Positions 4,756-18,927 are shown, counted from the stretch's first letter. The stretch: 38,499 nt of DNA from Candidatus Woesearchaeota archaeon (GCA_964555925.1 CAZKUJ010000003.1:1-38499), one strand, 5' to 3'. Notes: generated from the letters alone by a model not told the origin. Numbers and translations are program-made.

Positions 4756-4826
4756 TGGCCCTGCCCAGGATCGAACTGGGGCTTTGTCCACGTCAAGGAC
4801 AAGGTCTACCATTAGCCTACAGGGCC
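4756..4826 (-). tRNA. tRNA-Val(GAC)
   Basis: Reverse complement: acceptor GGCCCTG/CAGGGCC-A, anticodon arm TGTCC-TTGACGT-GGACA, T-arm CCAG-TTCGATC-CTGG. Confidence 0.94.
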
Positions 4827-4934: not shown

Positions 4935-5150
4935 ATGAGATACAGTAGTTATAGCGCTTCTAAAAAAATAAGGGGTTTGGTTATGTTTTTATACATATTA
5001 TTCGCACTTTATTTTTTGAATTATCCTTTTGGAGTTATTGTTATACCTGAATTATTTTCTTCTGTTGAGCCGTGGATAATTTTTATCGGAGGAATTTTGC
5101 TGATTATTGGAGGATTTAGTTATTTTAAGAGAGGAAGAATGCATTATTAA
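4935..5150 (+). CDS. Small two-TM membrane protein (paralog of 13749..13949)
   Basis: 71 aa, two hydrophobic helices, TATA-like TTTAAATA upstream. Aligns with the 13749 ORF. Confidence 0.75.
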   Translation: MRYSSYSASKKIRGLVMFLYILFALYFLNYPFGVIVIPELFSSVEPWIIFIGGILLIIGGFSYFKRGRMHY

Positions 5151-5255
5151 TTGAGGGACTGAATTTTCATTTATTCTCTTTTTTATCAATAAATTTATAT
5201 ACATAATTCCCATATTTTTTTTATGAAGCTAAAAAGAGGAAAAGGGGGCTTTTTT

Positions 5256-7085
5256 ATGAAAAATTCTAAAGGACAGGTAACGATTTTTATTATCATTGCA
5301 ATTCTTATTGTGGTTGGAGCACTGATTTACTTTTTTTTAAGGGGTTCTATGACTGAAACAGCTATTCCAGCACAGATGGAGCCTGTTTATGCAAATTTTT
5401 TAGCGTGTTTAGATGGAGCAACAACTACTGGAATAAGTGTTCTGAATTCTCAAGGAGGATATATTTATCTACCAGAATTTGAACCTGGTTCTTCTTATAT
5501 GCCTTTTTCATCGCAACTTAATTTTTTAGGAAATCCAGTACCTTATTGGTATTATGTCTCTGGAAATAATTTAGAGAAAGAACAAGTTCCAACAAAAAGA
5601 ATGATGGAGGACCAACTAAGTGCTTTTATTGAGCAAAAAATAAATAATTGTGATTTTACTTCGTATTATTCAGAAGGTTTTGAAATCTCGTTAACAGAGC
5701 CAAAATCAAAAGTTACAATCAAAGAAGATAAAGTTGAAATTAGTCTAGATGCTCCTTTAAGAATTGTAAAAAACGAGGAGAGTGTTCTTGTAAGAAATCA
5801 TAAAGTTACTGTGCGTTCGAAATTAGGTTCTTTGTATGATTCTGCAAAAAAAGTTTATGATAACCAGCAAGAGACTCTGTTTTTAGAAGAGTATGGCTTG
5901 GATGTTCTATGGAATTATGCGCCTGTTGATGGTGCAGAGATTACATGTTCTCCTCTTATTTGGAAAGCAGACGAGGTTTTTGATGAATTGCAAGAAGCTA
6001 TCGAGGTAAATACTTTTGCTCTTACAACAAAAAGCGCAAGAGACGATTATTTCTTTGTTGATATTCCTGTAAAAGAAGAAGTTCGCTTTTTGAATTCAAA
6101 AAACTGGCCAAATACTTTTGAAGTTTCTCCTGCAGAAGGGAATATTCTTTTGTCTACTCCTGTTGGAAATCAACCAGGCTTAGGAATTCTTGGATTTTGC
6201 TATGTTCCGTATCATTTTGTTTATGATTTAAAATATCCTGTTATGATACAGGTTCAATCTGGAGATGAAATCTTTCAGTTTCCTATGGCTGTTATTATAC
6301 AAGGAAATAATCCAAGAGAACCTCTAGATGCTGAAGCTGTAGAAGAGGCTGATCTTGATCTTTGCAAGTATAAAAATACACAAATAACAGTCAAAGTTAT
6401 AGATAAAAAGAATAATCCAATAGAAGCTGATATTTCTTTTGGATGCTTTGCGAACAAATGCAATATTGGAAAGACATCTGATGCAGGAATGCTTGTTGAA
6501 AATTTCCCTCAGTGTGTAAATGGATATGTTTCAGCAAGAGCCTCTGGATTTAAAGAAACAAGATATTTGTTTTCAACAGTCTCTTCTGGAAGTGTAAATA
6601 TAATTATGGAAAAACTTTATTCTAAGGGAATTCAATTAAAACTTGACAGAGTAAATTATAATGGAAATGCAATAATTTATTTTATTTCAGAGGACTCAAC
6701 AAAAACACTTGTTTATCCAGAGCAAAGAATTGCAGAGCTTGGAGAAGGACAGTATGAAATTCAGGTTTATATCTTTCAAAATTCTTCAATTAATTTAGAA
6801 GGAATGACTACAGAGCAATGTTTAGATGTCCCAAGAGCAGGAATTCTTGGGGTTCTGGGATTAAAGCATGAAAGGTGTTTTGAGATTGAAATTCCAGAGC
6901 AAACTATTTCGCAGGTTCTTTCTGGAGGTGGAACGCAGAATTATTATGTTTTAGAATCAGAATTAATGAGGCCGGGTTATATTGAGATATCTACAGAAAG
7001 TATCTCAAAACCTGAAAATCTTGAGCAATTGCAAAACAATCATCTTTTATTTGAGGCTAAGAGCCTTGAAATAAAATTTTTATAA
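5256..7085 (+). CDS. Exported protein with class III (archaeal pilin/archaellin-like) signal peptide
   Basis: MKNSKG|QVTIFIIIAILIVVGALIYFF. ATG 5256 follows AGGGGG and is preferred over the track start at 5223. Several Cys, beta-rich C-terminal part. Confidence 0.8.
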   Translation: MKNSKGQVTIFIIIAILIVVGALIYFFLRGSMTETAIPAQMEPVYANFLACLDGATTTGISVLNSQGGYIYLPEFEPGSSYMPFSSQLNFLGNPVPYWYYVSGNNLEKEQVPTKRMMEDQLSAFIEQKINNCDFTSYYSEGFEISLTEPKSKVTIKEDKVEISLDAPLRIVKNEESVLVRNHKVTVRSKLGSLYDSAKKVYDNQQETLFLEEYGLDVLWNYAPVDGAEITCSPLIWKADEVFDELQEAIEVNTFALTTKSARDDYFFVDIPVKEEVRFLNSKNWPNTFEVSPAEGNILLSTPVGNQPGLGILGFCYVPYHFVYDLKYPVMIQVQSGDEIFQFPMAVIIQGNNPREPLDAEAVEEADLDLCKYKNTQITVKVIDKKNNPIEADISFGCFANKCNIGKTSDAGMLVENFPQCVNGYVSARASGFKETRYLFSTVSSGSVNIIMEKLYSKGIQLKLDRVNYNGNAIIYFISEDSTKTLVYPEQRIAELGEGQYEIQVYIFQNSSINLEGMTTEQCLDVPRAGILGVLGLKHERCFEIEIPEQTISQVLSGGGTQNYYVLESELMRPGYIEISTESISKPENLEQLQNNHLLFEAKSLEIKFL

Positions 7086-7086
7086 A

Positions 7087-10000
7087 ATGAAAAAAGAAAT
7101 CAGAAATAAAAAACAGAGAATTGTTTTGAATATTTCTTTATTTGTAATTTTCCTAGCAAGTGTTCTGCTTATTAATCTGGCTTCAGCAGAATCATATTCT
7201 CGATCAGTTACAGGATATAGCCAATATGTTGGCGTGCAATATTCTACTGGAGATACCTACTTTCCTTTTGTATATGGTGCTGACGGAAGTTTTAACAGAA
7301 ATCTTTGCCAGGCAGGACAGGATTTTCTTCTTTATGTTTCTCCTACAGGATGTATTCCTTCTGTTGTGAGAAGTGATTTGCTTGAAGAGCAAAATGTTCC
7401 TGTTTTTTGTCCGATTATGGCAACAAAACTTAATCCTTTAATAAATGTTGACGCAATAGATTATGTTTCTTTTAGAGGAAATACTCCTAAAGAAGTTTCT
7501 GGAATTGGATATTATCCTGCGCAAGCTGCATTGGGAAAAGCCGGTTTTCAGGTGACTTCTTCTTTAGCAAACAATATAGGTTATGCAGTTATTGTTTTAA
7601 AACAACAAAAAAACGAATCTGCAATGCCTAGTTTTGTTGAAGGAAATATTACTGCTGTAATAAAATACGATATTAAAAATGCGTTTGGAGTAGGACAAGC
7701 ATCATTTTATCTTCCTGTAATGAGTGACGCAGAATGGAATGAAAATTTTAAAAGATATGGTTTTTGGCAAGGAAGAGGTTATCTAAGAGTAGATTCTGTT
7801 GAAGATGATAGAGCAACAATTTCGATTTATTCAGATAGAGAAACATATAGTTTAGCAAAAACAGACAAAAAAGTTGTTGCAACTGTTCCGATTGAAATAG
7901 GAAAAACCTCAAGAGAAATACTCATGCCTGGTTTTGATTATTGTATGGGTGGTTTACAATTAAAACTTAATGGAATTGAAAATCCTGATACGATGGTCAA
8001 ATTAAATGTGAATGGAGATTATTTTGATTTAAAAAAAGGAGAGAAATTCATCGATGAAAAATGTTATGTAAAAAATCTAGATAAAAGAGGTGTTATTGAA
8101 TCAGTAGAAATAACTTGTAGAGAAGATGTAAAAACAAATACCTTTTCTCTAAGCATAAATCCAAAAATTGTGCTTGAGATGGGTGGAGTTGCAAGAAATT
8201 ATAGTCTTGGTGAGAAATTATACGCAGAGATTAAAGACGGAAAAGAAACTGGAAAATCTGTTTATCTTGTTTATGCTAGAACAAAAGGAGATACAAGAAA
8301 AGAAGAAAATCTAACGGTCACTCTTGCCGCTATTCCTGGAAATGCAGAGAAATTAAGTGATAGTGATTTAACTTCTATTGGAAAATTTTTAAATAAATAT
8401 CCTTCACCCGAAAAAAGCAGCACAATTGCGGAGAGAGGGATTAATGCACTTAAATCTGTTTTATCTGGAACAGGACTAATTCTTAGGGGAATAATAGAAG
8501 GACAAGCTTTTAAGGACATCAATGTTAATGAACCAGCAAAAGAACTTTTTGGAAAAAATATAAAACTTATTGGATTTGCAGGTGCAAGAGATGCAGATAC
8601 TTCTCGGTTTTATCCTTTATTTAAGGAATATTATGATAATGCTATGAAGGATTATAATGCGATTATAGGTAATTATCCTAGTGAAAAATATCCTCAAGAA
8701 GAGCAAATAACTTTAGGACAAAGGGCTTTAACTGAAATGATAGGTCTTGCGTATAAAGCGCAACAAATGAGAACAATTATGGATTTGTGCAGGAATTTTG
8801 AAGAAAAATATTCAAATTTTGATGTTCCAGATGTTTGCCAAGATTCTCATAAACTTTCAAGTTTTGATGCTTCTTCAAAAGATGTTGAGATTGGAGGAAA
8901 AGTTTACAGTATTTCAATGGTTAGAATTCAAGAACCTTCTTTTGAAGATTTAGGCGTAACAATTGATATTAGCGGAACATCTGTGAATTTTACTGGTTCT
9001 AGAGATTTGCGTTTGAATGATAGAGTATATGTTAATGAATCAGAATATATTTCTTTAATTGGGCTTGAAAAAGATTATGCTGTTTTTGATATTAGCGGGA
9101 TAAGTAGAGCAGCAACTACAGTTGGAAGCACTGTAAAGATAAATTTAAATTCTTATGAGCTTGTCGGAAGCAATAATTATCGTATTGGCGTAACCACAAT
9201 TAATCTTAAAAAAGTAGCAAAGGTTTCTGTTATTCCACGCATAGAACGCGAAACAACTAACGCAACATTTTCATTTAAGATAGGAATTGAAAAAAGGGGA
9301 ATACAACTTACTCCTGAAAAAACACAAGAGAGAATTGAAAAACTTAATAAAACAATTGCTCAATGGAAAAATCTAAATGAAAAATTAGGCAGCGTGGTTA
9401 AAGCAGGTAAAGCAGCATGTCTTGTTACAGGGACAGCACTTACTATTAAAAATTTCTTTGCAAATCTTAAAGGTGAAGGAATTGCAAGAGAAATGGTTAT
9501 GAGGAAATCTGGAGGATGGTTTGAATTTTGTGAGGTAGAAAAGATTAAAACAGGACAATCAGTGGACTCTTGTTTGTTAGCGAATTCTGATAAGATAGAT
9601 TCCAATGTAGAAGAAGTTACTAAAATAATACAAGAGCAAAATAACAAATACAAAGAACTTCAAGAAGGAATAACTAAGAGAACTGATTTTTTAGGAGAAG
9701 ATGTTGTTGATACAGATGCATTAATGAAAAGATTTGTTGATGAAGACCCACAGTTTAAGAATGATTTGAATAATATTGTAAATAAACTAGAGAAGGTTAA
9801 AATTAGCGGCTCTGATGTGAATGTTTCAGAGATAATTAAAGGAATCAATAGTGAAACAATTACTTTAACTCAGGCAAGAGAGATTCAATTGAATTCTAAA
9901 CTTTTGAATTCTGAAGACGCCAAAATAAAAGAAATTGCGAAAAAGAATTTAGAAGCAAGTTTAGGAGATGTTTGGGTTAATTCAAGAGATAAAATTGCCG

Positions 10001-13000
10001 TAAATACTCTTAAAGATAAACTTCCAGATGGTTTGAAAGATTTAGGAGTAAGTGTTCGTGCTCAAGGAACCGCGATTACAGAAGTGTATGAAGGAAAAAC
10101 AACAACCCAGCAAGTTGGCCAAATTCCTGCGAATGTTCCTGCACAAACATTGATTTATGGTGGAAAAGATTATATCATAGAACTTGAAAAAGCAGGAGAA
10201 ACCTATAGAGTTAAAGAAATTTATGATACTATGGGAAACAAAATAGATAGTACTTTATCAGCATATCAAGAAATAAAAAATAAATTTATATTTAGGCAAT
10301 TCGACAAAACCACATATAAAAATCCGTCTACAACAATGGTGTTAAGATATTATGAAACTGGAAATTATAAGGGTGTTCCTGCAATTGTTCCTTTTGACAC
10401 TTCAAATGGATGGTATGCTGCAATTAAACCATCTATTCCAATACTTGGCGCAATAAAACCTGTTGATGATTCTGGAAGAGTTTCAAGTTTCTGGCTGTGT
10501 AATGTTGGATCAAATAAAAAAGAAGAATTCTTTGAGCTTACTGATTCTGGAAGAGGAGATGATATCTGCCAGATGATTAATCGCGCAACAGGACAAACAT
10601 ATGACTCGTTTCCAGGACTTGATTCGAGCGAGGCATCTAAATTAGTTAATAATGCACAGCTTGCAATCTCGCAAGCCCAAAGAGCTTACAAATCAGGAAT
10701 GAGCAATAAAGTGAATATACTCGGAAAATCTATTTCATTAGGAGAACCTACTTTTGGCAATCCCGATATACAATGTCAAGATTTTATGTCTCCTAAAGAC
10801 TGCAATCTTATGTTTAATGTTTGTGACCCTGTTGTTTGTCCAAGTTCACGATGTAATCTAGGTGGTGCCTATACTGTAAAAGATGTAATTCAATCAGGAA
10901 TAGCAGGAAGCATTGCTCTTTGTCTTCCTAATTTCCCAGAAGTTATTGTTCCTGTTTGTCTTTCAGGAGTTCATGCAGGAATTGATGGTTATCTAAGTGT
11001 TATGGAATCTTATCAAGAATGTTTGGAAACTAGTTTGAAAACAGGGCAAACAGTTGGAATTTGTGATTATTTAAATTCTGTTTATATGTGTGAATTTTTC
11101 TGGAAGCAATCTTTACCTGCTGTAAAATACGTTGTTCCTAAATTAATAAGCAAGATAGTTGGACAAGATGTTCGCGGAGGAGGAGAGTATCTTAGTGCTA
11201 AAGATGCATGGGAAAAAGCAGGAGATTCTGTGGATTTCTTTACCCAGTATTATGCAGCTAATTCTTATGCTGCTTTTAAAGCAAGATCACTTGAAGGAGT
11301 TGGAACTGAATTTTGTAAAAATTGGCTTTCGATTCCTGGTTTAGGAAATGGAGAACTTTTTGATGCTTTGATAGCTCCTGATTCTCCGTCTCAATTTTAT
11401 GGAAGTTTTGAGGAAATACCTTTTACAACAGCAACTGTTCCACCAATTTCACAATATAAGGTATTTTATCATATTTATGCTGGAAAAGATTTACCTGCTT
11501 ATTATGAGGTTTATCTAAAAGGAGATGTTGGTTATTATTATCAAGATGTTTCTTCTAGAAGACTTGTTGCAAGAGGATTTATTGCTACAGGAGAGAGTGC
11601 ATCAAATACAGAAGATTTCACAGCTCCTTCAGGATATAATGAACTTTGTATTGTTGTAAATAATCAAGAAGAGTGTGGATTTAAGCAGGTTTCAACTGAT
11701 TTTGCTGTCCAGTATATATCAGATAGTTTTGTTGCCCAACAAGCTAAACAAACAGATGTTACTAGTTCAACTGAATGTGTCTCTGGAACATCTAGTCTTC
11801 TTAGTTTATTAAATCCAAATCTTCAGGCAGGAGCAACTGAATTGCTAAATCCTGCAATTTACAATAGAGGAATTATTAGAATCTGTTCAACAGATAATCC
11901 TGGAAAAACAACAGACTCTTATGCGGGGACAGAGAAAGCAAGATGGAAAGAAGTTGGTTATTGCGACACTACTGCAATAAAATGCTGGCTTGATACTAAA
12001 AGTGTTAAGGACACAATAGAAATAGGAACAATTGAAAACGCAACTCTGAGCGAGGTGTCTACTAATTACTTATCAATTTTAATGAATGGTTCAGATTATG
12101 TTGAAAATTTTGATGAGCTTGTTAAGGAAATTGAAAATGAAAATGTTTTGACTGAAAAAATAAAAAAAGTAAATGAAAATTTAGACAAAGTCTATTTTAA
12201 TTATCAAAAAGGCTATCTAACATTATTAAGAGGAGATGCTTCTAAAGCACTCGCTAATCTTGCTATCTCGCTAAAAGTATCTATTGCAGGTACAGAAACT
12301 ACTAGCGATAAAACTGAAACTCCTCCTAGCGATAAAACTGAAACTGTTTCTGATTACAGAACCCCTATAGATAACATAGGAATAACATCTCCAATTCTTG
12401 AATATGAGTCTGGAGGAACCCTCGGATTAGGCAAAAACAAGGTTTATTACATATACTCTAAAAGTAAGTGGTATTTTTCTCTTACTGGAGAACAAAAAAC
12501 AGAAGAATGGTTTCCTATAGATAAAACTCTTCCAGAATATGGAAAATTATCCACGAAAAATCAAGAACTTACAAATAGTTTAGTTGATAAGTCTTATTTA
12601 GATGGGCTTATGCTGTTGATTTACAAAACAACCCAGAATGAAGATGGCGGTTTTTTGTCTAATGTGTATTTATCTACAAAAAGAATTGAATTTTCACACA
12701 ATAAAAGATTTACATTCCAATCATATGAACCATTAACTTTTTATTTTGAATATGATGATTCTTTAAAAAAATGGAAGTGGTCTGATAATAAAGAACAATG
12801 GTTTTCAGTTTCAGAGAACATTTCATCTGCATCAGATACAGCGCAATTAGCACTTGCGTACGAAACAGAAAATTTAAGACCTTTAATAGAGAAATTTAAA
12901 AATTTAGTAGGAGCACTTAGAGAAAAATCATTTTATCAAGGATCTGCATTAATTTTTCAAATTGATGCAGTAGAATTTTCGATTGAAACTCCTTCTGAAG

Positions 13001-13542
13001 CCGAAACTTGTCCTGTTCCAAGTCCTACAGAAGCAGTATTAGCAATATCAGATCCTCAAAAAAGAGTTTTGAAAACAGTAGAGGAGCTTAATGGAAAACC
13101 TGCCCCTGGTTCTTCTTGTTTTCATTCAATTGAATTTGTTTATAGAAGCGCAGCAGTTGATTTTGGATGTACATATTCTGATAAGTCAGGTCAACAATAT
13201 AATATAGATGGAGAGATAATAATTATAGGTGAAGATAAAGATGCTCAAAATGCAATTATCTTTCTTGTGCCAACAGGAGCAAGCTCTTGTAAATATCCTC
13301 TCGGCGCATTAAATTATCAGCAAAAGCTAGACCAAATTCAACCAGGAGATTGGTTAGATGTTGCATGGACAGATAAATCATCTCATGCTGTCATATTTAT
13401 TGGATGGGAGAATAAAGAAAAAGGATATGCACGAATATTTGATTGGATAGGCGGAGGAAGTAGGACCTATGGATATCAAAATGTATATTTAACAGAAAAT
13501 ACTAATCCTGTTTATTTGCATAGAAGTCCTGTACTGGCGTAA
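7087..13542 (+). CDS. Giant (2151 aa) Cys-rich exported protein with putative C-terminal NlpC/P60- or CHAP-like peptidase domain
   Basis: Sec-type signal (FVIFLASVLLINLASA|ES), Cys-dense core (CQDFMSPKDCNLMFNVCDPVVCPSSRC), C-terminal SCFHSIEFVY...IQPGDWL...SHAVIFIGW. Starts 1 nt after the upstream stop. Confidence 0.75.
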   Translation: MKKEIRNKKQRIVLNISLFVIFLASVLLINLASAESYSRSVTGYSQYVGVQYSTGDTYFPFVYGADGSFNRNLCQAGQDFLLYVSPTGCIPSVVRSDLLEEQNVPVFCPIMATKLNPLINVDAIDYVSFRGNTPKEVSGIGYYPAQAALGKAGFQVTSSLANNIGYAVIVLKQQKNESAMPSFVEGNITAVIKYDIKNAFGVGQASFYLPVMSDAEWNENFKRYGFWQGRGYLRVDSVEDDRATISIYSDRETYSLAKTDKKVVATVPIEIGKTSREILMPGFDYCMGGLQLKLNGIENPDTMVKLNVNGDYFDLKKGEKFIDEKCYVKNLDKRGVIESVEITCREDVKTNTFSLSINPKIVLEMGGVARNYSLGEKLYAEIKDGKETGKSVYLVYARTKGDTRKEENLTVTLAAIPGNAEKLSDSDLTSIGKFLNKYPSPEKSSTIAERGINALKSVLSGTGLILRGIIEGQAFKDINVNEPAKELFGKNIKLIGFAGARDADTSRFYPLFKEYYDNAMKDYNAIIGNYPSEKYPQEEQITLGQRALTEMIGLAYKAQQMRTIMDLCRNFEEKYSNFDVPDVCQDSHKLSSFDASSKDVEIGGKVYSISMVRIQEPSFEDLGVTIDISGTSVNFTGSRDLRLNDRVYVNESEYISLIGLEKDYAVFDISGISRAATTVGSTVKINLNSYELVGSNNYRIGVTTINLKKVAKVSVIPRIERETTNATFSFKIGIEKRGIQLTPEKTQERIEKLNKTIAQWKNLNEKLGSVVKAGKAACLVTGTALTIKNFFANLKGEGIAREMVMRKSGGWFEFCEVEKIKTGQSVDSCLLANSDKIDSNVEEVTKIIQEQNNKYKELQEGITKRTDFLGEDVVDTDALMKRFVDEDPQFKNDLNNIVNKLEKVKISGSDVNVSEIIKGINSETITLTQAREIQLNSKLLNSEDAKIKEIAKKNLEASLGDVWVNSRDKIAVNTLKDKLPDGLKDLGVSVRAQGTAITEVYEGKTTTQQVGQIPANVPAQTLIYGGKDYIIELEKAGETYRVKEIYDTMGNKIDSTLSAYQEIKNKFIFRQFDKTTYKNPSTTMVLRYYETGNYKGVPAIVPFDTSNGWYAAIKPSIPILGAIKPVDDSGRVSSFWLCNVGSNKKEEFFELTDSGRGDDICQMINRATGQTYDSFPGLDSSEASKLVNNAQLAISQAQRAYKSGMSNKVNILGKSISLGEPTFGNPDIQCQDFMSPKDCNLMFNVCDPVVCPSSRCNLGGAYTVKDVIQSGIAGSIALCLPNFPEVIVPVCLSGVHAGIDGYLSVMESYQECLETSLKTGQTVGICDYLNSVYMCEFFWKQSLPAVKYVVPKLISKIVGQDVRGGGEYLSAKDAWEKAGDSVDFFTQYYAANSYAAFKARSLEGVGTEFCKNWLSIPGLGNGELFDALIAPDSPSQFYGSFEEIPFTTATVPPISQYKVFYHIYAGKDLPAYYEVYLKGDVGYYYQDVSSRRLVARGFIATGESASNTEDFTAPSGYNELCIVVNNQEECGFKQVSTDFAVQYISDSFVAQQAKQTDVTSSTECVSGTSSLLSLLNPNLQAGATELLNPAIYNRGIIRICSTDNPGKTTDSYAGTEKARWKEVGYCDTTAIKCWLDTKSVKDTIEIGTIENATLSEVSTNYLSILMNGSDYVENFDELVKEIENENVLTEKIKKVNENLDKVYFNYQKGYLTLLRGDASKALANLAISLKVSIAGTETTSDKTETPPSDKTETVSDYRTPIDNIGITSPILEYESGGTLGLGKNKVYYIYSKSKWYFSLTGEQKTEEWFPIDKTLPEYGKLSTKNQELTNSLVDKSYLDGLMLLIYKTTQNEDGGFLSNVYLSTKRIEFSHNKRFTFQSYEPLTFYFEYDDSLKKWKWSDNKEQWFSVSENISSASDTAQLALAYETENLRPLIEKFKNLVGALREKSFYQGSALIFQIDAVEFSIETPSEAETCPVPSPTEAVLAISDPQKRVLKTVEELNGKPAPGSSCFHSIEFVYRSAAVDFGCTYSDKSGQQYNIDGEIIIIGEDKDAQNAIIFLVPTGASSCKYPLGALNYQQKLDQIQPGDWLDVAWTDKSSHAVIFIGWENKEKGYARIFDWIGGGSRTYGYQNVYLTENTNPVYLHRSPVLA
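12302..12345 (+). repeat. 20-bp direct repeat (24-nt period) encoding the TSDKTETPPSDKTET linker
   Basis: CTAGCGATAAAACTGAAACT at 12302-12321 and 12326-12345. Confidence 0.9.
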
Positions 13543-13591
13543 AGATGCGAGACAAGTGAATGTTCTGTCGCATTTTTCATTTTATTTCAAA

Positions 13592-13675
13592 TGCGGGAGA
13601 TAGGATTCGAACCTATGTAGGCACTAAGCCATCAGGTCCTAAACCTGACCCGTTTGACCACTCCGGCACTCCCGC
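13592..13675 (-). tRNA. tRNA-Leu(TAG)
   Basis: Reverse complement: GCGGGAG/CTCCCGC-A, anticodon arm TCAGG-TTTAGGA-CCTGA, long variable arm GGCTTAGTGCC, GGTTCGAATCC. Confidence 0.96.
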
Positions 13676-13748
13676 ACTCCAGCATGTAGATTTCTGCTTT
13701 AAAAATATTATTCGCAAGATATTTAAATCTATTCTAATTATTTAAGAA

Positions 13749-16928: not shown

Positions 16929-17050
16929 GCCCGGGTAGCTCAGCCTGGATAGAGCGACTGCCTTCTAGGGAATATTTCCGTGAGGGAATAAACTTGTTCC
17001 GGAAATCCGTGGCAAGCAGTAGGTCGCAGGTTCAAATCCTGTCCCGGGCA
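16929..17050 (+). tRNA. tRNA-Arg(TCT) with 47-nt intron at 37/38 (16968-17014)
   Basis: Acceptor GCCCGGG/CCCGGGC-A, D-loop GGATA (A20), stem ACTGC...GCAGT with loop CTTCTA|intron|A, GGTTCAAATCC. Relaxed BHB at the junctions. Confidence 0.9.
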
Positions 17051-17463: not shown

Positions 17464-18927
17464 ATGAGAAAAGAAATTTCATTTCTTGTTATTGCTGCGA
17501 TTATTGCATTGGGCATAATTATTGTCTATTATTGGGGGGGGCAGCCTACGGGATTTTTTGTTTTTGATGAATATGAAAACCAGACAGCTTGTGAAGATGC
17601 AGGATATGTCTGGGAAAATTTAACAGCGCAGAATTGTACTGCTATTGTCGATTGTACTCTTTGTGTAGTTGGATGTAAAACTAATTGTACTGAATGTATC
17701 GATGTTGTAATTGGTGAATGTGTTGAAAATATAACTCTTTCTGAAAATTATTGTGAAGATGCGAATTATACTTGGTGGGAAACTACTGAGCAGAATTGTA
17801 CTGATATTGTTAATTGTACTCTTTGTGTAGTTGGATGTAAAACTAATTGTACTTCTTGTGAAACTATTATAATTAGCGGACGGTGTACTGGAGATGTTTG
17901 CGATTCTGATAATTTAAACTTATGTGTAGAAACAAACTGTACAGAAGCGGGAGGACACTGGTATGACGGTTCCTGTCAGGAATCTGTTCCTAGTCTAACA
18001 TGCGTGCCTTCTTGGAATTGTAGTACGTGGACTCCAGAAATATGTCCATCTTCTGAAACTCAAACAAAAACTTGTAAGGATTTAGAAAATTGTGGAGTTG
18101 AGAAACGTGTTGAGAACAGAACCTGTACCTATACTCAGGCTCCAATGCCCTCTCTTAATGCAGATAATATTGAAAATCTTAAATTAAATCCAGGAGCTTC
18201 TTCTGAAATTGCATGGAATGTTATAAATAGTGGAAAAGTCTTTTTGAGTTCTTGTTCTTTTGAAGCTAGTGGAGATTATGCTGAGTGGATTTCTTTTGCA
18301 GGTGATGGAATAACAGATATTGGAATAGGAAATACAGCTAATTTTAATTTTAGTGTTAATGTTCCTGAAGAAATTGAAGAAGGAGAGTATGCTTTGAGTG
18401 TTATTGTTAGATGTTCTCAAGTATATGTTTCAAAGCAATTTGTTTTGCAGGTTGAAACTAAGAAACTCGAATTTGATCTAATTGCTGCAGATAGAACAAG
18501 ATTAGATAAGGTAAGAATAATTTATTCTTTAGGAGAGCTTACAGGAGAGGCCCAGGATGTAGCACTTAAGTTTTTACTTATTGGAGCAGGGGCTGAAGAG
18601 GTTGCATTTATTGAAGAAAATAGAAGTCTTAAGGCAAACGCAACTAAAGAATTCACTGCTAACATGCCGATTAATGAATCTCTAGAAGGAGAGCTTGAAT
18701 TAGTTATTAATTATAATTCAGAAATATACTCAAGTTCTGTAAGAGAGCCAATTGTTCTTGGTGCACCTATTGGAGGAGCAGCAATCTTCGAAGATATTGG
18801 TACTGGTGAAATTGCTATTATTGTAATTGTTCTGGTTTCTTTGGTTTTAGCATTGTTTGTTGTAAAAAAGATAAGAAGTTCTGGAAAAACACTAAAAACT
18901 CTATTTCAACGTAAAAAAGAAGTATAA
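17464..18927 (+). CDS. Cys-rich, membrane-anchored surface (glyco)protein with internal repeat and probable Ig-like domains
   Basis: N-terminal hydrophobic segment, duplicated QNCTxIVxCTLCVVGCKTNCT, WNCSTWTPEIC...QTKTC segment, many N-x-S/T sequons, C-terminal TM plus basic tail. Confidence 0.85.
   Translation: MRKEISFLVIAAIIALGIIIVYYWGGQPTGFFVFDEYENQTACEDAGYVWENLTAQNCTAIVDCTLCVVGCKTNCTECIDVVIGECVENITLSENYCEDANYTWWETTEQNCTDIVNCTLCVVGCKTNCTSCETIIISGRCTGDVCDSDNLNLCVETNCTEAGGHWYDGSCQESVPSLTCVPSWNCSTWTPEICPSSETQTKTCKDLENCGVEKRVENRTCTYTQAPMPSLNADNIENLKLNPGASSEIAWNVINSGKVFLSSCSFEASGDYAEWISFAGDGITDIGIGNTANFNFSVNVPEEIEEGEYALSVIVRCSQVYVSKQFVLQVETKKLEFDLIAADRTRLDKVRIIYSLGELTGEAQDVALKFLLIGAGAEEVAFIEENRSLKANATKEFTANMPINESLEGELELVINYNSEIYSSSVREPIVLGAPIGGAAIFEDIGTGEIAIIVIVLVSLVLALFVVKKIRSSGKTLKTLFQRKKEV
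17651..17853 (+). repeat. 41-bp perfect direct repeat, 162-nt (54-codon) period
   Basis: ATTGTACTCTTTGTGTAGTTGGATGTAAAACTAATTGTACT at 17651-17691 and 17813-17853. Confidence 0.93.

Follow-up and report, generated by a model that had tools for sequence, protein, structure and literature searches.

What function is served by the two adjacent genes, P0001 and P0002, that occupy positions 5,256 to 13,542 of a contig assigned to a Candidatus Woesearchaeota archaeon (GCA_964555925.1 CAZKUJ010000003.1:1-38499)? This contig, referred to here as the window, is 38,499 nucleotides (nt) long, and is contig C3 of a genome (G000) of 457,547 bases in 26 contigs, estimated to be 87% complete. An original prediction, made from the sequence of the window, had read the pair as a minor pilin and a large tip protein, which would present an enzyme to host cells. 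The answer favored here, with a chance of being correct that is slightly better than even, is that the genes encode a single, translationally coupled surface module, in which P0001 holds a giant protein that presents a murein hydrolase to bacteria.

Structure and linkage of the gene pair

The two genes and the main segments of their products are listed below. The residues of P0001 are numbered by the form of 620 amino acids (aa), in which Gly17 and Q18 flank the cut site of MKNSKG↓Q, where the arrow marks the predicted cut.

5223..7085, plus strand: P0001, the partner protein, an open reading frame (ORF) of 620 aa, or 609 aa from the start at 5256
5256..5348, plus strand: class III-type signal MKNSKG↓Q and hydrophobic helix (aa 18-42) of P0001, from sequence, conservation, and hydropathy
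Between codons 5271-5273 and 5274-5276, plus strand: predicted cut site of P0001
6369..6620, plus strand: predicted transthyretin-like/carboxypeptidase-regulatory-type beta-sandwich of P0001, aa 383-466 (VIA-align)
7087..13542, plus strand: P0002, the giant exported protein, 2151 aa, the longest ORF of the genome
7087..7188, plus strand: Sec-type signal peptide of P0002, aa 1-34, ending in LASA↓ES, from sequence and hydropathy
7264..12186, plus strand: conserved scaffold of P0002, aa ~60-1700, from the coverage of high-scoring segment pairs (HSPs) and 30 conserved Cys
10774..11091, plus strand: densest Cys cluster of P0002, aa 1230-1335, with 10 Cys, each present in 120 of 120 aligned sequences
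11386..11685, plus strand: predicted beta-sandwich domain of P0002, aa 1434-1533 (VIA-align, Z ~7)
12187..13539, plus strand: exchangeable tail of P0002, aa 1701-2151, from the drop in HSP coverage

The genes are separated by a single nucleotide, with the junction TAA-A-ATG, and neither ORF is the product of chance, because 2224 database proteins match P0001 and 736 match P0002 at E ≤ 1e-3. The second ATG of the P0001 ORF, at 5256, is likelier to be the start than that at 5223, since GGGGG lies 7 nt upstream from it and translation from this point yields MKNSKG↓QVTIFIIIAILIVVGALIYFFL. A TATA-like tttatata is found approximately 55 nt upstream. The resulting N-terminus has a short charged region, a cut-site motif, and a hydrophobic stretch, in agreement with the FlaFind-type pattern. 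The motif [G/A]-Q-[V/I/L]-T-[I/V]-F-I-[I/V], in which the first position is once S, is retained in all 61 of the homologue N-termini inspected. An alignment of 47 sequences shows no variation at Q18, F22, I23, and A26, nor at ten Cys, which fit extracellular disulfides. The only hydrophobic helix of P0001, by hydropathy, is N-terminal, and the remainder would form a large extracellular body. The isoelectric points (pI) of P0001 and P0002 are 4.8 and 5.2, and their N-glycosylation sequons number 1 and 13, respectively.

The 2224 homologues of P0001 were recovered by a word-indexed search in which 8000 matches were scored; the best 120 of them align to 86-100% of the query at identities of 57-78%. 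No match to P0001 was found in Pfam, NCBIfam, or PHROGs, its profile matched no PDB sequence, and a search of the ESM Atlas returned only its own unnamed clusters. An AlphaFold2 model, with a mean predicted local distance difference test score (pLDDT) of 69.4, places another helix (aa 50-76) after the N-terminal one (aa 17-42), and then an alpha/beta region that contains a sheet of four strands (aa 153-198). Beyond a segment that is modelled poorly (aa 225-336), the domains are rich in beta structure (aa 380-600). The fold-search rows for P0001 cover the beta-sandwich part only (aa 383-592 in VIA-align), where the best alignments to aa 383-466 are with 9hfj_A (Z 11.1, root-mean-square deviation [rmsd] 2.1, 79 residues aligned) and 1qmu_A (Z 11.0); further beta-sandwiches extend from aa 466 to approximately aa 600. 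Foldseek recovered tandem Ig-like surface proteins, at TM values of 0.1-0.16. The identity of P0001 within its family is 39-53%, versus 45-66% for the ribosomal protein S3Ae, and P0001 thus appears to diverge more slowly than would be expected of a host-specific adhesin or a typical coat protein.

The giant P0002 starts with MKKEIRNKKQRIVLNISLFVIFLASVLLINLASA↓ES, a Sec-type signal by sequence and hydropathy. Its only strongly hydrophobic stretch is at aa 9-38, with a milder one at aa 1272-1295, and none at the C-terminus. The 736 homologues, from 7999 scored matches, are 1183-3765 aa long. Among 120 sequences, 30 of the 34 Cys are conserved at ≥ 97%, all of them within aa 74-1633, and these also fit extracellular disulfides. 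The densest cluster (aa 1230-1335) encloses the mildly hydrophobic stretch, and the most distant genomes match only positions ~187-270 of the core query (P0002 aa 1101-1640), that is, aa ~1287-1370 of the protein. Identity within the giant family is approximately 40% overall and 50-60% in the core, with values of 56-66% for the neighboring housekeeping proteins.

No known family was found for the scaffold of P0002: Pfam run on pieces at E ≤ 10 returned nothing credible, and NCBIfam and PHROGs gave the same result. The profile of the whole giant family (2118 positions) reached a best E of 0.19 against all the PDB sequences, and the ESM Atlas held no usable match for the core. In the AlphaFold2 model of aa 1050-2151 (1102 residues, pLDDT 70.7), most of the domains are confident. 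The domain at aa 1434-1533 matches the macroglobulin MG domains, the MspA rim, and GH2 Ig-like domains in VIA-align, and its fold is generic; Foldseek with the whole 1102-residue model returned only generic beta-sandwich rows, none at E ≤ 1e-3.

The linkage of the two genes was surveyed in a phylum sample of 301 genomes. A P0001-like match is present in 277 of these, including the unpublished G243 and G244, both weak (275 of 299 without them), and many of the weaker matches span only the N-terminal two thirds of the protein. The giant core is matched in 79 of the 301 genomes, strongly in 65. By comparison with the best 150 P0001-like places in the sample, 60 of the 65 genomes with a strong core have a P0001 homologue as the next gene upstream, in the same orientation, while in the other five the two are on different contigs. 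Six of the 15 weak core places also adjoin a P0001-like gene, two of them in reverse order, and every weak core match falls within an ORF of 1016-3367 aa. All 12 of the loci fetched, which were picked because both genes matched, keep the two genes side by side without a change of order; in L010, L011, L013, L015, and L017, the pair is joined by a 4-nt overlap or a 1-nt gap.

The genome is archaeal by the neighbors of the pair, which encode TFIIB, S3Ae, L44e, S8e, and RNase Z, and the homologues of P0001 and P0002 that bear names are mostly labelled Nanoarchaeota or Pacearchaeota. These neighbors are themselves syntenic across the family, and the pair therefore appears to be an old, vertically inherited core locus of the Pacearchaeota-type (Nanoarchaeia, DPANN) archaea, rather than an inserted island. 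A mirror-tree style comparison, based on pairwise identities, gave a rho of 0.64 between P0001 and P0002, and 0.85 between P0001 and TFIIB, values which follow phylogeny and are uninformative on co-evolution.

Most of what the original prediction had noted in the sequence was recovered in these analyses, namely the KG↓Q class III signal on a protein of approximately 610 aa, the 1-nt gap to a 6.4-kb gene, the Sec signal of the giant, its Cys-dense core, and the lack of a C-terminal membrane anchor. The linkage of the genes in relatives, on which that prediction depended, was also found. A coiled-coil stretch had been proposed as well, for which a crude composition check found Pro/Gly-poor, charge-rich windows at aa 827-868 and 925-952.

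The exchangeable tail and its enzyme domain

In the giant, the conserved scaffold (aa ~60-1700) is followed by a tail that is exchangeable. Among the 119 homologues listed, BLAST HSP coverage is 112-119 over aa 51-1700, and falls to 53-57 at aa 1751-1950 and 34-40 at aa 1951-2151. When 120 members were grouped by their C-terminal ends, clusters of 47, 26 (which includes P0002), 18, 4, 3, 2, 2, and 2 were obtained, together with 16 singletons, and the nearest neighbor by core has a different type of end in 54 of the 120, at core identities of up to 80%.

The features of the P0002 tail that bear on its activity are:

13045..13539, plus strand: predicted NlpC/P60/CHAP-like cysteine peptidase/amidase domain, aa 1987-2151, from the VIA-align fold match
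13117-13119 (TGT), plus strand: Cys2011, the putative nucleophile, invariant in 37 of 37 sequences
13384-13386 (CAT), plus strand: His2100, invariant in 37 of 37 sequences

When the model was aligned to 48,161 PDB representatives by VIA-align, rows 1-21 all fell on model residues 926-1102 (Z 7.7-9.5, rmsd 3.0-3.9, 97-118 residues aligned), and 19 of these 21 rows are titled NlpC/P60, CHAP, endolysin, autolysin, or peptidoglycan hydrolase. In papain-like hydrolases, the Cys is expected at the start of a helix and the His on a strand. In the model of P0002, Cys2011 (model residue 962) opens the helix 962-972, and His2100 (model residue 1051) lies on the strand 1049-1060. By eye, the last 165 residues contain an SSC motif followed by PGD...H, like the motif pair of NlpC/P60. 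This domain is thus assigned to the NlpC/P60/CHAP-like wall hydrolases by its predicted fold and its catalytic residues, rather than by hidden Markov model, because Pfam is blind to it. The suggestion in the original prediction that the giant presents an enzyme agrees with this model-based assignment.

When 1.84 billion representatives were searched with a profile of the domain, 146 proteins were recovered at E ≤ 1e-3, of which 37 reached E ≤ 1e-30. A PDB sequence search with a single domain gave no match. When 55 weak, short profile matches were scanned, five contained NLPC_P60/PF00877 (three over the cut-off), three PG_binding_1, and one a weak Amidase_6 together with DUF6584, with the other 46 having no family. 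A word-based search for short proteins bearing the domain found only three, probably fragments.

Other members of the family carry different enzymes. Among 22 metagenome representatives of the giant, Pfam matched eight, with SLT (three), VanY, M23 (28.6 bits, against a cut-off of 28.7), DUF1615, PT-HINT, and TPM, and none of the other 14. For a less biased census of the tails, the starting set was the 64 other species-representative genomes in which the core is strongly matched; 10 were dropped for split core matches, which left 54. Families related to murein were found in 20 of the 54 tails, being SLT in ten, M15_4 in three (one together with SLT), NlpC/P60 in two (one below the cut-off), 3D+GDSL in two, and M23, VanY, Amidase_3, and SH3_3 in one each; another tail has only a weak metal-binding motif. 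Only one of these 54 tails, that of L019, has the domain type of P0002, which is present there in two complete copies plus a fragment. The giants of two other families have the SLT domain near the N-terminus instead. In P0002 itself, no SLT domain was recovered, even when pieces were searched at E ≤ 10; homologues that share its scaffold carry this domain.

Readings of the pair

In the mechanism favored here, P0001 would be exported and probably cut by a prepilin peptidase after Gly17. Its N-terminal hydrophobic helix would then hold it in either the membrane or a short pilin-like assembly, from which it would display a disulfide-bonded body with beta-sandwich domains. P0002 would be exported by Sec, and would most likely be held at the surface by P0001, given that it has no anchor of its own. 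Its disulfide-rich scaffold of 1700 aa would carry the exchangeable tail, here of the NlpC/P60/CHAP type with Cys2011 and His2100, and the enzyme would most likely cut the peptide part of bacterial peptidoglycan at the contact between the archaeon and the bacterium. This cutting may serve attachment, the local breaching of the wall, or the release of wall fragments as food.

The bacterial wall is the probable target because the genome has no detected genes for murein synthesis, with neither Mur ligase nor penicillin-binding protein (PBP) transpeptidase being found in the 87%-complete assembly. The contact with a host that the original prediction proposed is retained, insofar as an enzyme would be presented, but the host is more likely to be a bacterium than an archaeon, because all of the enzyme types carried by the family act on murein.

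A number of points weigh against this reading. The binding of P0001 to P0002 is proposed from gene coupling, and adjacency amid syntenic housekeeping genes could partly reflect a general conservation of gene order. The fold assignment of the enzyme comes from a single aligner, applied to a domain within a 1102-residue model, together with the conserved residues; Pfam did not match the domain to PF00877 or PF05257 even at E ≤ 10, nor did Foldseek return a match to it at E ≤ 1e-3. The most conserved Cys-rich part of the giant, aa 1228-1433, was modelled at a pLDDT below 50. Among the tails in the census, 33 of the 54 have no Pfam domain, and 13 of the 54 are ≤ 300 aa, one of which is cut by the end of a contig, so that the scaffold has a role that is independent of the enzyme. 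The absence of murein genes comes from an incomplete genome. As for expression, one metatranscriptome supplied small contigs, at a depth of 2-6, on 7641-7900, 13333-13697, and the neighboring genes, which are too few to rank expression and may include DNA carry-over.

Two other readings would bring in a type IV-like assembly, and each is considered doubtful. In the first, the pair would be a conserved host-breaching device of Pacearchaeota and Woesearchaeota, in which the giant rides on a short type IV-like assembly that its class III partner has primed or formed, while the exchangeable hydrolase opens the sacculus of a bacterial host and the core (aa ~1228-1433) then engages or perforates the membrane of the host. 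This core is invariant, disulfide-rich and partly hydrophobic, matches no known fold, and is the only part of the giant kept in the most distant relatives. If this reading were true, these very abundant archaea would live across the domain boundary, with bacteria as their hosts (as episymbionts) or their prey, and the type of tail would track the chemistry of the host wall.

The second, which is that of the original prediction and likewise improbable, is a pilus-tip complex, in which P0001, as a large minor pilin, would prime a type IV filament and remain at its tip, with P0002 bound to it there and the enzyme carried on a retractable fiber. The conserved class III motif favors it, and the predicted layout of P0001 (the helices at aa 17-42 and 50-76, the sheet at aa 153-198, and the beta-sandwiches) is one that a pilin head could have. 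Elsewhere in the genome, the gene for a 268-aa paralogue of the P0001 N-terminus likewise ends 1 nt before that of a Cys-rich secreted protein. The machinery is available in the genome, which has an A24 prepilin peptidase (PF01478 at G000:C1:41298-41642, E 3.5e-16), and two secretion ATPases with two PilC/FlaJ-type platform matches, arranged in two type IV pilus-like loci with small pilin-like genes. P0001 matches no Pfam pilin model, a null that is uninformative because three pilin-like genes from the pilus loci of this genome also fail. However, archaeal class III signals are also found on surface proteins that form no filament, such as the sugar-binding proteins of Sulfolobus, and the pair is in neither of the pilus loci: these are on contigs C16 and C1, whereas the pair is on C3, with genes for ribosomal proteins, tRNAs, and TFIIB as its neighbors. 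A pilus ATPase and a prepilin peptidase thus occur in the genome, but not at the locus of the pair. The original interpretation is upheld for its signals, linkage, and enzyme, although membership of a filament and a position at its tip gained no support, and no PilY1-like fold appeared among the VIA-align rows for P0002 aa 1050-2151.

The pilus-like loci occupy G000:C16:1-7507 and G000:C1:32634-42131, each with many small pilin-like genes. In one of them, the pilin-like genes start with KKG↓VS, and in the other, which contains the A24 peptidase, with K or R and then G↓, followed by Q, E, or D.

A two-component cell coat is a quite unlikely reading, in which, by analogy, P0001 would be an anchored stalk, P0002 an outer subunit similar to those of S-layers, and the enzyme tails decorations. 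A nearly universal, vertically inherited pair among housekeeping genes, comprising a small anchored protein and a very large anchorless one from coupled genes, would suit such a coat, as would the acidity of both proteins, and no other clear S-layer gene was recognized among the large secreted ORFs of the genome. One beta-sandwich of P0001 also aligns to SlaB (8qox_B; VIA-align Z 10.1, rmsd 2.3, 83 residues aligned; Foldseek E 7.4e-6), but this match involves a single beta-sandwich of a generic kind, to which dozens of unrelated proteins align equally well, and the anchor of P0001 is N-terminal, whereas that of SlaB is C-terminal. The N-glycosylation sequons are few, the conservation of the scaffold is rather high for a protein of the coat, and rapidly swapped murein hydrolase tails suit a weapon or tool better than a lattice.

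Archaeal peptidoglycan hydrolases that kill bacteria have been reported, and a lysin released into the medium would resemble them. The least probable reading, that P0002 is such a lysin, secreted for competition or feeding beside a P0001 with a separate role, draws on the Sec signal without an anchor, on the prominence of peptidoglycan hydrolase homologues in Nanoarchaeota that is described in passages of PMC12352652, and on the separate 227-aa SLT ORF of this genome, but fits poorly with a conserved, disulfide-rich scaffold of 1700 aa that a diffusible lysin would not need, with family members that apparently have no enzyme tail, and with a coupling to P0001, by 1-nt gaps or 4-nt overlaps, that is kept across the class.

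With the surface module as the preferred reading, both a conserved pair at a core locus, which takes up 1.8% of a genome of 457 kb, and a changing repertoire in which each major class of murein hydrolase is represented point to bacterial hosts or prey. This suggests that bacteria serve as an attachment site or a food source for this tiny archaeon, which probably depends on a host, and for its kin. We know of no host for the Pacearchaeota or Woesearchaeota, and all the cultivated DPANN archaea live, to our knowledge, on other archaea. The type of tail could predict the type of host wall, and the partner and the giant are possible targets for labelling.

Surroundings of the locus and known systems

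The pair is flanked by tRNA genes on both sides, and by a short ORF upstream:

4756-4826, minus strand: tRNA-Val(GAC), flanking the pair
4935..5150, plus strand: ORF of 71 aa with two hydrophobic stretches, 72 nt before the P0001 gene
13591-13676, minus strand: tRNA-Leu(TAG), flanking the pair on the P0002 side

The flanking tRNA genes prompted the idea of an inserted island, which was rejected, given that the pair and its housekeeping neighbors are syntenic across the family. The tRNA-Leu gene on the 3' side of P0002 is followed by the convergent TFIIB gene. The 71-aa ORF may encode an accessory membrane protein, and its membership in the module is uncertain; ORFs of 70-74 aa are found in the equivalent position in two of the 12 fetched loci (L006 and L007), with 35% identity to that of L006. 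No small RHH-like ORF was found ahead of P0001. In the loci L011-L014, from other families, the giant is followed by a polytopic membrane protein of 218-266 aa.

A second module of the same design is found at G000:C5:23650-28324 (loci L078-L080). Its first protein, of 268 aa, has the start GQVTIFIIIAIL, as in P0001, to which it is 28% identical over 197 aa (P0001 aa 3-183, E 0.002). One nucleotide after its gene comes that of a 572-aa Sec-signal protein with 41 Cys, and then that of a 710-aa membrane protein with 21 Cys; no Pfam family was found in any of these proteins. The stand-alone SLT domain, in the 227-aa ORF, is at G000:C5:8751-9059 (minus strand, locus L018), and would represent a separate murein hydrolase. 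At G000:C2:24874-37761, there are approximately six paralogous Sec-signal proteins of 500-602 aa, with the start MKKSLICL...SAATINAPSCS and 13-21 Cys each, one of which has a weak pectate-lyase-like beta-helix match.

Elsewhere in the window, 17464-18927 (plus strand) encodes a protein of 487 aa that has 28 Cys and a hydrophobic stretch at its N-terminus. It is matched by NPCBM_assoc alone, and weakly so (E 5e-4, which falls below the cut-off); small metatranscriptome contigs lie on its gene. At 16955-17022, between RNase Z and the next gene, two DNA runs have approximately 62-66 bases swapped for at least four different strings of 15-19 bases, in what appears to be a small hypervariable or repeat-like spot; ARAGORN found no tRNA there.

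Both the giant family and the idea of a bacterial wall as its target are already in print, in the passages of these sources that bear on them. Castelle et al. 2021 (PMC8204110) describe fam00969, the large murein lytic transglycosylase proteins of Pacearchaeota and Woesearchaeota, which are defined by an SLT domain, Vigneron et al. 2022 (PMC9723730) refer to a "large lytic murein transglycosylase" in Woesearchaeota, and passages of PMC11537232 report GH23 murein transglycosylase genes in many Pacearchaeota genomes, in line with the prominence of peptidoglycan hydrolases already cited from PMC12352652. P0002 can be likened to fam00969 by its description in those passages, as an exported protein of ~2000-3000 aa that is restricted to these lineages, with a proposed role in binding or degrading the wall, and homologues of P0002 with the same scaffold do carry SLT. 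P0002 differs in having no SLT and an enzyme with a predicted NlpC/P60/CHAP-like fold that Pfam misses, and an annotation based on SLT alone overlooks many members of the family, P0002 included.

Neither a fixed partner with a class III signal nor the exchange of tail enzymes was found in the literature searched, a result on which the co-distributed families of the supplementary "module 98" may bear. There is no mention of pilin or pilus in the main text of PMC8204110, whose relevant passages do not describe an exchange of tail enzymes, and a 2026 preprint on Nanobdellota genomes has no mention of a giant, transglycosylase, peptidoglycan, pilin, or murein. What is new here is a member of the family with a cryptic NlpC/P60-like enzyme, together with a conserved partner.

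The predicted domain shares its fold and the placement of its Cys and His with the NlpC/P60 and CHAP hydrolases, such as CwlO, LytE, SagA, MepS, and RipA, and the endolysins LysGH15 and PlyC, but has no PF00877 or PF05257 match, and ends an archaeal protein of 2151 aa. Among surface assemblies, the SlaA/SlaB pair of the Sulfolobales (PDB 8qox) also has a small anchored and a large anchorless subunit from adjacent genes, with one beta-sandwich that aligns. The differences are that P0001 is anchored at the opposite end, that this match is generic, and that the large subunit of the P0002 family carries wall-cutting enzymes; by sequence, no match of P0001 or the giant family to PDB chains was recovered. 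The class III sugar-binding proteins of Sulfolobus resemble P0001 in having a class III-type signal on a large surface protein. In bacterial type IV pili, minor pilins act with PilY1, and the large minor pilin CofB has the secreted partner CofJ. P0001 is similar in its class III-type signal and helix on a large body, and in the pairing of its gene with that of a secreted partner, but no homology to these systems was detected, and the pair is outside the pilus loci.

The polymorphic effectors CdiA, Rhs, and the evolved VgrG with peptidoglycan hydrolase ends combine a conserved delivery part with exchangeable C-terminal domains. The giant differs from them in having no relation of sequence or fold, in its fixed core locus, as opposed to an island, and in having no immunity gene downstream of P0002, which would not be needed, because the organism appears to have no murein. 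The likeness is in the design, with the N-terminal 80% of the giant being conserved and the ends varying even between close relatives, and extends to a PT-HINT pretoxin domain in one of the 22 giant representatives (P0174).

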